Below are positions 1 through 4,075 of a stretch of 4,075 nt of DNA, piece after piece. How positions within the stretch are numbered: the first letter of the stretch is position 1; each line of letters begins with the position of its first letter. Source of the DNA: a virus (taxonomy: Duplodnaviria; Heunggongvirae; Uroviricota; Caudoviricetes). Made by a program: the position numbers and the translations under genes. Below the pieces are notes generated by a model. That model saw nothing but the letters and a program-made list of their open reading frames with translations, did not search any database and was not told the origin of the DNA. Where the stretch lies: IMG/VR virus record IMGVR_UViG_2778261316_000010. The stretch is one strand, 5' to 3'.

Positions 1-45
1 ATAAAACCGGGTGATGCAAAAGTAGCCATTTGATTCACAAGGCCA

Positions 46-74
46 TTGACGCATCGCCCGGTTAGTTTTAACCT
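46..74 (+). promoter_or_regulatory. Candidate sigma70 promoter for thrW
   Basis: TTGACG at 46-51, 17-nt spacer, TAACCT at 69-74, about 40 nt upstream of the tRNA 5' end. The -10 match is weak and no TSS can be confirmed from sequence. Confidence 0.3.
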
Positions 75-114
75 TGTCCACCGTGATTCACGTTCGTGAA
101 CATGTCCTTTCAGG

Positions 115-190
115 GCCGATATAGCTCAGTTGGTAGAGCAGCGCATTCGTAATGCGAAGGTCGTAGGTTCGACTCCTATTATCGGCACCA
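115..190 (+). tRNA. thrW: tRNA-Thr (anticodon CGU)
   Basis: 76-nt sequence GCCGATATAGCTCAGTTGGTAGAGCAGCGCATTCGTAATGCGAAGGTCGTAGGTTCGACTCCTATTATCGGCACCA folds as a cloverleaf: acceptor GCCGATA/TATCGGC, D stem GCTC/GAGC, anticodon stem GCGCA/TGCGA with loop TTCGTAA (anticodon CGT), T stem GTAGG/CCTAT with TTCGACT loop, encoded CCA. It matches enterobacterial thrW as I recall it, the known attachment site of P22-type integrases. Confidence 0.95.
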
Positions 191-204
191 TTAAAATCAA
201 TAAG

Positions 205-1368
205 TTACACATCATTAGTACCTTCCTTATTTTTTGACTGGGACAAATTTGGGACCGATGGGTTCAGGATCGAGTCTATTTGCCGTGCGTGTTCGGTAAG
301 GTGATTAGGTGCGAGGTGAGCATATCGACGAACCATTTCGATAGACTCCCAGCCTCCCATTTCCTGTAACACTGACAACGGGACACCGGCTTGAACCAGC
401 CAACTTGCCCAGGTGTGTCTCAAGTCATGAAATCTGAAATCATCAATACCAGCTCGTCTCAGCGCCGCTTTCCAGGCTGTGTTTGCGTCATACCGCATCT
501 TCCTGACTGTTGGCGCTTTCGTTCCGTCTGGTTTGGTACAGCTTTCCTTGTACACAAATACCCAACGGTGATGATTCCCGATTTGTTTTTTCAATACGCG
601 ACATGCAGTATCATTCAGCGCAACGCCAATTGCGCGGTTTGATTTACTCTCTTCCGGGTTTATCCATGCCACCCGGCGCTGCATATCTATTTGTTGCCAT
701 TCAAGGTTGATGATGTTCGAGCGTCTTAAGCCTGTTGCCAGTGCAAATTCAACAACAGACTTTAATGGCTCCGGACATTCATCAATCAGCCTTTGTGCTT
801 CATGGGGCTCCAGCCAGCGGATCCGTTTATTCTTTGGTTGAGGCACTTTAATAATTGGTGCCTTATCCAGCATTTTCCATTCACGCTCTGCGGCTCTTAG
901 TAGGGCCTTTATAAATGAAAGATGCGTAGCCTTCGTTGCAACGGACGCTGGTTTTGGCGTGTATTCTGGAACAGGTTTCCCTTTTTTTCTGCATGCTTCT
1001 GCCCTGAGTTTCCAGTTTTCCTCATGACGCCGGTTCGTCATTTTCTGCATTGCTGAATAAATTTTTGATTCAGTGATGTCTCTTAGTTGCATCCCTGCGA
1101 AATGTTGAAGCCAGAATCCGATCCGGCTTTTGTCATCGTCCAGTGATTTCTTATGTGCTTTCTCTTCGAGCCACCTGACACACGCTTCCTCAAACGTCAT
1201 ATCAGGTATTTCACCAAGTTTGCTGACCCGCCATGCTTCAGCCTTTAGCTTGTCATGGAGCTCTGTCGCCTGCCTTTTGTCCTTTGTTCCAAGAGACTGT
1301 TTAAATCTTTTACCGTTCGGCAATGTGAAACTGGCGTACCATATTTCACTTCTGCGGAAGAGTGACAT
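205..1368 (-). CDS. int: Phage tyrosine integrase (site-specific recombinase), P22 Int-like
   Basis: 387-aa ORF starting [31 protein letters not shown], with GAGGAAA ribosome-binding site about 7 nt upstream of ATG 1368. C-terminal catalytic domain has the tyrosine-recombinase HxxR box ([10 protein letters not shown]) and the tyrosine nucleophile context (MVRRYAHL). It ends 15 nt from the tRNA 3' end, the classic tRNA-int arrangement. Resemblance to P22 Int is from memory. Confidence 0.95.
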
Positions 1369-1595
1369 TTTCTTTCCTCTGTTATGCCATCACCCGCGCT
1401 CACCTTGATAGTATGCAGCGGAGACTGAAGCGCCGCAATGCAGGCTTGTCGCGTTGTGAGGTAAGGAGATTTTGGTTTAGTGGGGTCTTTGCGTGTTGCC
1501 TGTAGGCGGCCTGTTCGTATCCAGTTGGTGGCGGTTGGTCTGGATATCTTAAGAAACTGACAGGCCTCATCGAGTGTGAGGCTGTATGATTCCAT
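1245..1595 (-). CDS. xis: Excisionase (Xis), P22 Xis-like
   Basis: 116-aa product from ATG 1595 ([31 protein letters not shown]...), preceded by GAGGT. It has an N-terminal HTH typical of excisionases and overlaps the int start by about 124 nt, as in lambda and P22. The ORF track's 126-aa version uses an upstream GTG without a convincing ribosome-binding site. Confidence 0.85.
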
Positions 1596-1845
1596 GGTTA
1601 CCTCTGCTTTTTGAACGCATGTCACGTAACTTCTTAATGTGTTCTGCCGTTTCGATCTCTTCTGCTATCCGATCTGCATCAGCTTTATTCACAGGTTCAA
1701 AGTCATGATTAAAGCGGAACATGCTGGCGATACATGTTCTGCCTTTTCGGATGTAGTGAACTTTGTTGTGGGTAGAACGCAGGATTTTGCAGGGAGTGCC
1801 GTGGTGGTCGACGTACCAGGTGTTAGGAAAAATGATTCTGAACAT
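1567..1845 (-). CDS. Hypothetical phage protein (92 aa), exo-xis region
   Basis: ATG at 1845 preceded by GAGGTG. It overlaps the xis start by 29 nt and is co-oriented with the operon. No family recognised from sequence. Confidence 0.65.
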   Translation of the reverse strand: MFRIIFPNTWYVDHHGTPCKILRSTHNKVHYIRKGRTCIASMFRFNHDFEPVNKADADRIAEEIETAEHIKKLRDMRSKSRGNHGIIQPHTR

Positions 1846-1892
1846 TTTTACACCTCAGTTGGACGATGTTGAAATTTGCTGCTTTGAGGCCA

Positions 1893-2111
1893 TCACAATC
1901 CCCATTGTTTGTTCTTAAGTTCGATCTCCTCCTGGCAACTTGCACAAGTCCGACAACCCTGAACGACCAGGCGTCTTCGTTCATCTATCGGATCGCCACA
2001 CTCACAACAATGAGTGGCAGATATAGCCTGGTGGTTCAGGCGGCGCATTTTTATTGCTGTGTTGCGCTGTAATTCTTCAATTTCTGATGCTGAATCAATG
2101 ATGTCTGCCAT
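1893..2111 (-). CDS. TraR/DksA-family C4 zinc-finger protein (lambda Orf73-like RNA-polymerase-binding regulator)
   Basis: 72-aa product with two CxxC pairs in the spacing of the TraR/DksA zinc ribbon (HCCECGDPIDERRRLVVQGCRTCASCQEEIE). Size and position in the leftward early operon match phage TraR homologues. Confidence 0.85.
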   Translation of the reverse strand: MADIIDSASEIEELQRNTAIKMRRLNHQAISATHCCECGDPIDERRRLVVQGCRTCASCQEEIELKNKQWGL

Positions 2112-2160
2112 CTTCCATTAATCCCTGAATTGTTGGTTAATACGCTTGAGGGTGAATGCG

Positions 2161-2189
2161 AATAATAAAAAAGGAGCCTGTAGCTCCCT
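2161..2189 (-). terminator. Probable Rho-independent terminator between orf71 and the TraR-like gene
   Basis: Minus strand reads AGGGAGC-TACAG-GCTCCT followed by TTTTTTATTATT: a GC-rich 5-7 bp stem, 5-nt loop and U-rich tract, 22 nt after the orf71 stop. Position is analogous to lambda tL terminators. Confidence 0.45.
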
Positions 2190-2209
2190 GATGATTTTGC
2201 TTTTCATGT

Positions 2210-2425
2210 TCATCGTTCCTTAAAGACGCCGTTTAACATGCCGATTGCCAGGCTTAAATGAGTCGGTGTGAATCCCATCAGCGTTACCGTTTCGCGGTGC
2301 TTCTTCAGTACGCTACGGCAAATGTCATCGACGTTTTTATCCGGAAACTGCTGTCTGGCTTTTTTGATTTCAGAATTAGCCTGACGGGCAATGCTGCGAA
2401 GGGCGTTTTCCTGCTGAGGTGTCAT
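2210..2425 (-). CDS. Hypothetical phage protein (71 aa)
   Basis: MTPQQENALRSIARQANSEIKKARQQFPDKNVDDICRSVLKKHRETVTLMGFTPTHLSLAIGMLNGVFKER. ATG at 2425 overlaps the TGA of the upstream 27-codon ORF (ATGA), suggesting translational coupling. The ORF track's 104-aa version needs a TTG start inside the methyltransferase gene and is not preferred. Confidence 0.6.
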   Translation of the reverse strand: MTPQQENALRSIARQANSEIKKARQQFPDKNVDDICRSVLKKHRETVTLMGFTPTHLSLAIGMLNGVFKER

Positions 2426-2505
2426 TGAACAAGTCCCATGTCGGCAAGCATAAGCACACAGAATATGAAGCCCGCTGCCAGAAAAATGCATTCCGTGGTT
2501 GTCAT
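2422..2505 (-). CDS. Candidate small hydrophobic peptide (27 aa), not in ORF track
   Basis: ATG at 2505-2503 overlaps the methyltransferase TGA stop (ATGA) and has GGGAGG 4 nt upstream. Product MTTTECIFLAAGFIFCVLMLADMGLVQ has a single hydrophobic helix-length core. Its TGA overlaps the orf71 ATG. Coding status is inferred from this coupling geometry only. Confidence 0.45.
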   Translation of the reverse strand: MTTTECIFLAAGFIFCVLMLADMGLVQ

Positions 2506-3059
2506 GCAGCCTCCCGACGGGCAAGAATCCTTGAGCCGAACGCCATCAACTCTCCACGATCAACGGTCGTAAAGTGGCAGTGTGTACGGGGGTATGGGTG
2601 CCAGATAATGAGCATCGAGCCTTTATTATTTCCACTGACGGGTTTCTCAGTGAGTGGGTTAATAAATGCCAGTCGTCCTGCCGTGATGAATCTGACCTCA
2701 CTGGCGGTTTGTATCGCTTCATGAAACCATCCGACAGATGTGTCAGCAGGCAATAACATTACACATCCCACACTACTGAATTTGTTTTCAGTGGCTGCCT
2801 TTTTCACAAAAGGGGAAATATTGCTGTATGGTGGATTCAACCAGACATAACCAGAGGCATATCCCATTGCTTCAGGCCATGAAGTGGTTAATGTGTTCTG
2901 CTCCTGTGAGATAAAAAGCCGACATAGTCGGTTTTTTTCGCTGGCGGCAGCATCAAGTTGAAAAACGAACTCTGCATTAAGCGCAGCAAAAATCTCTGGT
3001 GGTGTGCGCCAGCTGTCGCGATGTTCGGCAGGAGTATTGCTTCCGGTGAAATCAGTCAT
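2502..3059 (-). CDS. Phage-type DNA N6-adenine methyltransferase (Dam family, orphan)
   Basis: 185-aa product with the N-terminal WRTPPEIF...FVFQLDAAAS block and catalytic motif IV NPPY (GYVWLNPPYSNI), characteristic of the phage Dam N6-adenine methyltransferase family. GGGGG ribosome-binding site 4 nt before ATG 3059. No adjacent restriction endonuclease gene. Confidence 0.88.
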   Translation of the reverse strand: MTDFTGSNTPAEHRDSWRTPPEIFAALNAEFVFQLDAAASEKNRLCRLFISQEQNTLTTSWPEAMGYASGYVWLNPPYSNISPFVKKAATENKFSSVGCVMLLPADTSVGWFHEAIQTASEVRFITAGRLAFINPLTEKPVSGNNKGSMLIIWHPYPRTHCHFTTVDRGELMAFGSRILARREAA

Positions 3060-3213
3060 ACAGCCCCCGTTTATTATTTATCTCCTCAGCCAGCCGCTGT
3101 GCTTTCAGGGGATTTCGGATAACAGAAAGGCCGGGAAATACCCAGCCTCGCTTTGTAACGGAGTAGACGAAAGTGATCGTGCCTACCCGGATATTATCGT
3201 GAGGATGCTTCAT
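3052..3213 (-). CDS. Small phage protein (53 aa), lambda orf60a-like by position; not in ORF track
   Basis: ATG at 3213-3211 overlaps the exo TGA stop (ATGA) with GGGGAG 8 nt upstream. Product [53 protein letters not shown]. Its stop overlaps the methyltransferase start. In lambda the gene after exo (orf60a) overlaps the exo stop the same way; similarity is by position, not verified. Confidence 0.55.
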
Positions 3214-3488
3214 CGCCATTGCTCCCCAAATGCAAAACCAATTTCAGCTAGTGCCTCGTCCATTTTTTCGATGAACTCCGGCACCATCTCGTCAAAACTC
3301 GCCATGTACTTTTCATCCCGCTCAACCACGACATAATGCAGGCCTTCACGCTTCATACGCGGGTCATAGTTGGCAAAGTACCAGGCATCTTTTCGCGTCA
3401 CCCACATGCTGTACTGCACCTGGGCCATGTAAGCCGACTTTATGGCCTCGAAACCACCGAGCCGGAACTTCATGAAATCCCGGGAGGT
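3210..3488 (-). pseudogene. exo: Truncated exo (lambda Red-alpha exonuclease), C-terminal ~90 codons only
   Basis: Translation ...[92 protein letters not shown] is near-identical to the C-terminus of lambda Exo as I recall it. Upstream the frame has no start codon back to a stop at 3585-3587, similarity is lost, and the first ATG (3473) is preceded by CCTCCC rather than a Shine-Dalgarno. The N-terminal ~135 codons are absent. Confidence 0.85.
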
Positions 3489-3878
3489 ACTGTAATCGAC
3501 AGCTGGTCCAGTATGGTGTTTTTGAAGTTCAACGGGGCGAAATTTTCTGCCTCTGATTACCCTGTGCTGGCGAAAGTGTTTCCTTCACTGGTATTACCTG
3601 AAGCCCGCGGTGATTTCATTCGTATCTGGGATGACGGGCGAGGTGCCGATGGTGGTCGCGAATTATTAAGCTGGCAGGAAGCTACAAACTTTTCTCAGTT
3701 TGCCGGGAATATAGGCGGAGGTGCGGGACACACAATTAACTTTCATGATGGCATCGCCGGAAATCAGCCAGGATTTTCACGATTTAATTTCACCAGTAAC
3801 TCTGTGGGTGATGGTGTGAATTTTGTTGCTGTCAGACCGCGAAATATTGCATTTAACTTTCTTGTGAGGGCTAAATAA
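3489..3878 (+). pseudogene. C-terminal fragment of a phage side tail-fibre gene
   Basis: Plus-strand translation ...[55 protein letters not shown]... carries the tail-fibre collar signature (CNGA..S...YP.L ... LPD.RGRFIR.WD.G.G.D.GR...S.Q.DA). Only about 120-130 C-terminal codons are present and there is no credible start or ribosome-binding site; the ORF-track start at 3336 lies antisense to exo. Left boundary is approximate. Confidence 0.7.
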
Positions 3879-4000
3879 TGAAACCTGTTTTTGATGAAAA
3901 TGGGCTGGCTACAGTGCCGGGCGATATGCGTTGTTTTTATTATGATGCTGAAACATCTGAGTATACGGGCTGGTCTGATGAATATATTAATACTGGCGTA
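3878..4000 (+). pseudogene. Tail-fibre assembly gene, N-terminal 41 codons, interrupted by IS1
   Basis: ATG at 3878 overlaps the tail-fibre TAA (TAATG). MKPVFDENGLATVPGDMRCFYYDAETSEYTGWSDEYINTGV matches the N-terminal pattern of caudoviral tail-fibre assembly proteins (compare lambda Tfa ...IKIYNLLAGTNEFIGEG). The frame then runs into IS1 sequence at 4001. Confidence 0.65.
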
Positions 4001-4023
4001 GGTAATGACTCCAACTTATTGAT
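4001..4023. repeat. IS1 terminal inverted repeat (IRR)
   Basis: GGTAATGACTCCAACTTATTGAT, the canonical IS1 right inverted repeat as I recall it. The 9 bp before it (3992-4000, ACTGGCGTA) would be the target-site duplication if repeated at the other IS1 end. Confidence 0.85.
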
Positions 4024-4075
4024 AGTGTTTTATGTTCAGATAATGCCCGATGACTTTGTCATGCAGCTCCACCGA
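4016..4075 (-). CDS. insB: IS1 transposase InsB, C-terminal end (partial)
   Basis: Minus-strand translation of 4075-4019 gives SVELHDKVIGHYLNIKHYQ then TAA, the known C-terminus of IS1 InsB. The rest of the gene is outside the window. Confidence 0.85.
   Translation of the reverse strand, partial: SVELHDKVIGHYLNIKHYQ

Follow-up and report, generated by a model that had tools for sequence, protein, structure and literature searches.

The window analysed here, a stretch of 4,075 nucleotides, raises the question of how the remains of a lambda-type exonuclease gene (exo) on the minus strand and those of a tail-fibre gene on the plus strand came to abut one another at the tRNA gene thrW. According to an original prediction, such genes lie tens of kb apart in a lambdoid prophage, and their juxtaposition would reflect one large internal deletion that left a minimal cryptic prophage; an inversion or a mis-assembly was named as an alternative.

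Organization of the window

The window opens directly behind proA, which ends one base 5' of its start, and its features are listed below with their coordinates, strand and the basis of each assignment.

115..190, plus strand: thrW, tRNA-Thr (CGT), found by ARAGORN; its 3' part is the prophage attachment site
205..1368, minus strand: tyrosine integrase of the P22/SfI type, an intact 387-aa open reading frame (Pfam Phage_integrase, E=5e-48)
1245..1595, minus strand: excisionase-like HTH_17 protein (Pfam HTH_17; the SfI homologue is annotated xis)
1567..3219, minus strand: genes of the xis-exo interval (Pfam and RefSeq annotation of the identical region), given singly in the next five lines
1567-1845, minus strand: DUF4222 (Pfam/RefSeq)
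1893-2111, minus strand: TraR/DksA zinc finger (Pfam/RefSeq)
2210-2425, minus strand: 71-aa hypothetical open reading frame (RefSeq/Pfam set)
2502-3059, minus strand: phage Dam methyltransferase (Pfam/RefSeq)
3052-3219, minus strand: DUF1317 (Pfam/RefSeq)
3210..3489, minus strand: 3' fragment of a lambda-type exo, codons 135-226 and the stop codon (alignment to an intact 226-aa exo)
3488..3489, no strand: probable deletion junction, a TA dinucleotide (three-way alignment of the window, intact exo and intact tail fibre)
3490..3878, plus strand: C-terminal 129 codons of a tail-fibre gene, the variable, receptor-binding part (identity to intact fibre genes)
3878..4006, plus strand: first 43 codons of a tail-fibre assembly (tfa) gene, cut by IS1 (RefSeq annotation)
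4007..4075, no strand: end of IS1, the first 69 nt with the terminal inverted repeat (an IS1 family transposase is annotated directly beyond it in L001)

By annotation comparison, the protein accession of the integrase is identical to that in intact prophages. In the complete genome NZ_CM194533.1 (L001), the IS1 element has its inverted repeats at 16002-16024 and 16747-16769, and the 9-bp target duplication ACTGGCGTA that surrounds it inside tfa is intact, the left copy corresponding to window 3998-4006. An independent IS1 insertion into the same cassette was observed in strain N9 (L004), where it is situated between window positions 3582 and 3591 with ISKpn26 just upstream.

Position of the junction

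Upon a megablast search of 5,426 complete E. coli genomes, the window was matched over its full length in one, NZ_CM194533.1. In many further genomes the match covers exactly window 1-3489 at 99.1-99.9% identity, and it ends exactly at 3489 in at least 29 complete genomes among the matches listed. NZ_CP102488.1 (L002), with 99.9% identity over 1-3489, continues from there into a complete exo, followed by bet, gam and kil and by the remainder of an intact prophage. Approached from the other side, with window 3470-4006 as the query, the tail-fibre part is covered by 460 genomes, all beginning at 3487-3488, and the junction is spanned by NZ_CM194533.1 alone among those 460. A three-way alignment reads ...CCCGGGAGGTA|AACGGGC... 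for the intact exo at the break, ...GCCAAATA|CTGTAATCG... for the intact tail fibre, and ...CCCGGGAGGTACTGTAATCG... for the window across it. Aligned in this manner to intact prophages at thrW, the exo side extends to 3489 and the fibre side begins at 3488, the overlap between the two homologies being 2 nt (TA at 3488-3489). As near-identity extends over hundreds to thousands of bases on each side, chance is not an issue. The original prediction had the exo homology end near 3488 and the fibre homology begin at about 3486-3513, which was right to within a base of the break as now placed. The sole difference between NZ_CM194533.1 and the window is an extra T at window 3600, equivalent to L001 15600 (TTACCTTGAAG vs TTACCTGAAG), by which the fibre fragment is frameshifted in that genome; the window and the intact fibre genes are without it, so that either the base was gained later by mutation or that assembly contains a sequencing error.

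Recurrence of the junction in separate assemblies

The same junction is present in 11 separate assemblies (L001 and L009-L018), in which the remnant is 99.8-100% identical to the window. These originate from different projects: one is a RefSeq assembly at chromosome level, four are from GenBank and six are metagenome contigs from ENA. Among them, L009 (GCA_019780515.1) is identical to the window over all 4075 nt. The 87-aa open reading frame that remains of exo (described below) is recorded in 46 blocks of the assembly collection, and each of the ten contigs that were fetched (10/10) carries the identical junction. A search with the exact junction 40-mer gave 0 matches in species-representative genomes and 0 in JGI metagenomes, so the allele is absent from those two collections, yet it is carried by ENA and NCBI assemblies. 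The scar constitutes a stable marker, common to several E. coli assemblies and to metagenome contigs of gut or environmental origin.

Several of these loci have undergone further rearrangement. In L009, all that is left of IS1 is a stub of ~113 bp; ~113 nt past window 4007 the sequence passes into the early-left operon of a second phage, which encodes DUF551, Ead/Ea22, an anti-RecBCD protein, SSB and a Rad52-type recombinase and points toward the int of the remnant. This arrangement suggests that a second deletion merged the remnant with a tandem prophage without an int end of its own. In L010, L012, L013, L015 and L016, similarity to the window stops at ~142-145, inside thrW, and the remnant sits behind another element that abuts the att core (either tail genes that belong to another prophage, or an island whose integrase is of the P4 type). 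In those five loci, later integrations at thrW have apparently displaced the remnant downstream.

The whole remnant in a complete genome

In L001, window 145-200 is repeated exactly (56 nt) at 21537-21592, and the attL and attR so delimited enclose a remnant of ~9.4 kb, the 0.8-kb IS1 included. The order of genes is proA, thrW, int and the remainder of the left arm to the exo fragment, then the fibre fragment, tfa interrupted by IS1, a second tfa and an alternative fibre tip (both minus), pinE, a GIY-YIG protein gene, an AraC-type regulator gene, an IS fragment and attR, beyond which a CP4-6-like island begins. Direct att repeats at a known integration site, an integrase beside a tRNA gene, and junction flanks that are both collinear with intact relatives whose interior is absent here mark the element as a defective prophage. 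The predicted minimal cryptic prophage was accurate in that the integration module, the exo-xis cargo and a fibre tip are kept; however, it was too narrow, as the second half of the cassette, pinE, the GIY-YIG gene, the AraC-type regulator gene and the IS fragment are retained in L001 as well.

Int, xis, attL and attR are intact, and the remnant may still be excisable. It would be expected to be harmless to its host, to yield no virions and not to be inducible as a virus, and it would persist either passively or by way of its surviving cargo. The AraC-family regulator gene, at L001 20304-21047 next to attR, is common to the prophage Sp1 of O157 (OI-8 region), and it may be a candidate for PatE (z0321). 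PatE is a prophage-encoded activator of acid resistance in O157 (reviewed in PMC10877973).

Full-length relatives and the extent of the loss

The sequenced phage closest to the left arm is Shigella phage SfI (38.4 kb), with 97.9% identity over 81% of the arm. The left arm is also found in the thrW prophage of strain ST69 (~39 kb), which combines lambdoid early genes with an HK97-like head and a Mu/e14-like contractile tail, and in the prophage of strain PM4, which has a lambda-like tail; the right arm is held in common with the thrW prophage of strain SZQ1 (~39.4 kb) at 98.2% identity. Full-length relatives at thrW measure 38-39 kb (39.4 kb in SZQ1). Measured in SfI, the distance from one break position to the other is 30,974 bp, and in the ST69 prophage it is ~31.6 kb; the expectation that exo and the fibre gene lie tens of kb from each other thus agrees with the ~31 kb observed in full-length relatives.

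The interior missing from the remnant is present in SfI, ST69, SZQ1 and PM4, and its length of ~31 kb and its content are estimates, since the parent can only be reconstructed from mosaics. Among the early functions, the N-terminus of exo, bet, gam, kil/cIII, N, the immunity region, O/P, the nin region and Q would have been lost, and among the late functions lysis, terminase, portal, capsid, sheath, tube, tape measure, baseplate and the first 118 codons of the fibre gene. The designation of the parent as a lambdoid prophage holds for the early region, but the phage as a whole would be a mosaic of the SfI/SfV type with a Mu/e14-like contractile tail and not a classical lambda. Among the genomes inspected (ST69, SZQ1, PM4, O157 SS52 and B-JRPT-4119), none is an undeleted parent with both arms, all being mosaics or separately decayed; as no sequenced genome was found in which an undeleted interior is flanked by the two arms at high identity, the parent is reconstructed rather than observed.

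Origin of the deletion

On the strength of these comparisons, the junction is very probably the scar of a ~31-kb deletion in an SfI/SfV-like temperate phage integrated at thrW. One large internal deletion, as originally proposed, is what the arms indicate: the left is collinear with intact relatives as far as 3489, the right from 3488 onward, and both lie between attL and attR. The proposed model holds that the left break is at codon 134/135 of exo, that the right break cut off the first 118 codons of the tail-fibre gene and lies 53 nt past the left Pin (pix) crossover site, and that the ends were joined with a mere 2-nt overlap (TA). Joining may have proceeded by RecA-independent illegitimate recombination that is essentially independent of homology, possibly through the joining of a double-strand break or through an error of replication or of a topoisomerase. 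This type of joining is suggested by the fact that neither homology nor recognisable sites are present at the break. Homologous recombination, whether by RecA or by Red, depends upon tens of shared bases; only TA is shared here, and recombination between repeats is ruled out by the 2-nt overlap. Secondary structure was likewise set aside as evidence: the exo break lies in the loop of an imperfect hairpin that is no better than shuffled sequences (z = -1.6, 12/200), and no notable secondary structure was found at the fibre-side break.

An alternate scenario, which is rather unlikely, envisions two or more successive deletions, or one deletion across two tandem thrW prophages whereby each arm would have its own source, phage A for the left and phage B for the right. 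Elements integrated in tandem at thrW are indeed common in these data, in that L010, L012, L013, L015 and L016 have an element ahead of the remnant and the CP4-6-like island lies behind it in L001. Such a history is also favoured by the variety of morphogenesis modules that accompany the left arm (the tail is lambda-like in PM4 and SfV-like in ST69), and by the fact that no single intact parent was found. However, B-JRPT-4119 (L019) has the same kind of left arm together with the same right arm within one attL-attR pair, and SfI and the ST69 prophage indicate that the left arm naturally belongs to phages with such a tail. A single 31-kb deletion is the most parsimonious reading.

Two mechanisms that involve resident recombinases are highly improbable. 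Quasi-site recombination is known for Cin of phage P1, and the PinE invertase might by analogy have recombined the left pix site with a pseudo-site in exo, given that the fibre-side break is close to that site and that an intact pinE is located 2.6 kb downstream in L001. However, the 26-bp site ends 53 nt upstream of the break and was thus deleted rather than recombined, the parental sequences at the breaks (GGTA/AACG and AATA/CTGT) are unlike the crossover site, and no match to it exists in the window at up to 3 mismatches; with the break 53 nt beyond the site and no hybrid site at the junction, such an event is effectively refuted. An adjacent deletion mediated by the IS1 transposase is just as hard to credit. 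It could be entertained on the grounds that IS1 lies 518 bp to the right of the junction and that, in L009, IS1 itself underwent a further deletion. However, IS-mediated adjacent deletions end exactly at the terminus of the element, whereas this junction is 518 bp from the IS1 start (4007), and the intact 9-bp duplication ACTGGCGTA in tfa of L001 denotes a simple insertion, by which this mechanism too is effectively refuted.

Lastly, an assembly artefact or an inversion breakpoint can be dismissed almost outright: no evidence in support of either was found, 11 assemblies that include a chromosome-level RefSeq, four GenBank and several metagenome assemblies agree on the identical junction, which contains no repeat to mislead an assembler, and an inversion would expose an inverted interior, whereas the DNA past the junction keeps its native order and orientation as far as attR, through tfa, the second tfa, the alternative fibre tip and pinE. 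The opposite strands of exo and the fibre gene need no special explanation, as this is their normal arrangement, with the early-left operon directed toward int and the late genes toward attR.

The exo fragment and the open reading frames at the junction

The exo fragment ends at a stop codon at 3210-3212 and retains codons 135-226 of a 226-aa lambda-type Exo, from which the first in-frame ATG opens an 87-aa open reading frame (3210-3473). Only the last 33 of the 150 positions of the Pfam YqaJ nuclease profile are left (117-149). The intact exo of NZ_CP102488.1 is ~98% identical to the lambda exonuclease of known structure (PDB 1AVQ, 6M9K), of which the catalytic residues are Asp119, Glu129 and Lys131 in lambda numbering. 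Alignment to PDB 6M9K/1AVQ places D119, E129 and K131 upstream of the break in the intact relative, and all three are deleted from the window, which accordingly encodes no complete YqaJ/lambda Exo nuclease domain. With codons 135-226 alone remaining and these residues lost, the Exo product is devoid of its active site and catalytically dead. In the identical region of NZ_CM194533.1, both junction genes are already annotated by RefSeq as partial pseudogenes.

On the plus strand, a 180-aa open reading frame (3336-3878) begins with 51 codons antisense to exo and continues in frame into the fibre tip; versions of 121 aa or 133 aa are called in other assemblies, and promoter-like sites for this chimeric frame do not exceed chance. 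We take it to be a probable by-product of the joining. For purposes of annotation, the 87-aa "exo" frame and the 121-180-aa tail-fibre frames at this locus are best treated as pseudogene fragments.

The fibre fragment and a frozen invertible cassette

From 3488 to its stop codon at 3876-3878, the fibre fragment is 97-99% identical to annotated tail-fibre genes, the identity being 97.9-99.4% to the intact genes that it matches from L019 8497 and L003 6001. It is without the 118 N-terminal codons (L019 8141-8496) and the upstream Pin crossover site. Its Pfam match to Collar is partial and below the gathering cut-off, and its phage matches are annotated as tail fibre. The N-terminal part, which attaches to the baseplate, is missing along with every tail gene upstream and the late promoter region, and promoter-like sites do not exceed chance, none of which is compatible with a functional fibre.

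The fragment belongs to an invertible cassette (L001 15490-18090) that is composed of a fibre tip and tfa on the plus strand, a tfa and an alternative fibre tip on the minus strand, and then pinE. The right crossover site, the 26-bp TTCTCCTAAACCAACGTTTATGAAAA, is located at L001 18009-18034 next to pinE. In intact genes, the left crossover site is located at L019 8418-8443 and L003 5923-5948 and ends 53 nt upstream of the break. No pix-like site was detected in the window at up to 3 mismatches, and 28 kb of L001 contains one only. Segments inverted by Pin, Gin, Cin or Hin have two sites; here pinE is intact and one 26-bp site is left. As the deletion removed the left pix site and a single site remains, the cassette is locked, with no more inversion, and serves as a clean example of a phase-variable tail-fibre switch frozen by the loss of one crossover site. 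In L012 and L013, all of the 4-7 substitutions relative to the window are confined to 3732-3910 (fibre/tfa), with none in the 3.3-kb left arm; such clustering might be due to gene conversion, with other fibre cassettes of those genomes as donors.

Sister scars and significance

Two other members of this thrW prophage family carry scars of their own. In B-JRPT-4119 (L019 5027-5033), a truncated DUF1317 gene is joined to a truncated baseplate gene with a 7-nt overlap, the left break being ~300 bp from that of the window, and in O157:H7 SS52 (L006 7845-8366) the more complex junction of Sp1 joins a truncated P gene to the fibre region. These scars represent independent deletions in the same family. 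The left arm (int/xis) and the right arm (fibre cassette, pinE, GIY-YIG and AraC-type genes) are kept in each of the three, i.e., the window, B-JRPT-4119 and O157 Sp1. The retention of both ends is the default product of internal deletions, and the reading that the scars converge under selection for a small, domesticated and still excisable element with host-benefiting cargo is doubtful. If true, cargo such as the AraC-type regulator (possibly PatE) or a trans-acting Pin invertase would be under selection. In itself, the scar in the window represents ordinary prophage decay; this further case now has a breakpoint placed to the base and a likely mechanism, in which ~31 kb was lost and the ends overlapped by 2 nt.

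Comparison with known systems

The closest parallels are found in SfI, SfV, SfII and SfX, the serotype-converting phages of Shigella flexneri, which have in common with the remnant the thrW site, the integrase and xis, as well as the order int-xis-DUF4222-TraR/DksA-...-DUF1317-exo-bet-gam up to the break. These phages have a Mu/e14-like contractile tail, and the tail fibre is their last structural gene. SfI is complete (38.4 kb), whereas the remnant is short of ~31 kb; in place of the gtr O-antigen genes at the right end of SfI, the remnant has the invertible fibre cassette, pinE, the GIY-YIG protein gene and the AraC-type regulator gene.

Sp1 of E. coli O157:H7 Sakai (CP-933H of EDL933) is likewise a degraded prophage at thrW. 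Its right arm, to which that of the remnant is 96.3% identical over 86%, has the same succession of fibre, tfa, tfa, alternative fibre tip, pinE, GIY-YIG, AraC-type regulator and IS fragment. According to PMC2669165, Sp1 is severely degraded and probably stems from a lambdoid phage, and no circular form of it was detected. The two differ in that the integrase of Sp1 is cut and adjoined by IS1203, cI, cro, cII and O survive, and a P fragment is joined to the fibre region, whereas int is intact in the remnant and its scar lies in exo.

The element e14 of E. coli K-12 is a small lambdoid remnant in which int/xis and the Pin-invertible stfE/tfaE, tfaP/stfP and pinE are kept; it sits in icd, retains both crossover sites and still inverts. 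The present remnant resembles e14 in its fibre cassette and int/xis, and its homologues are named stfP, ymfQ and pinE in RefSeq; unlike e14, its left site is deleted and the segment is fixed. The defective lambdoid prophages Rac, DLP12 and Qin of K-12 have large internal deletions that left integration-proximal and cargo genes, and they are non-inducible. The remnant is the same in kind as these, and the breakpoints and the parental phage alone differ.
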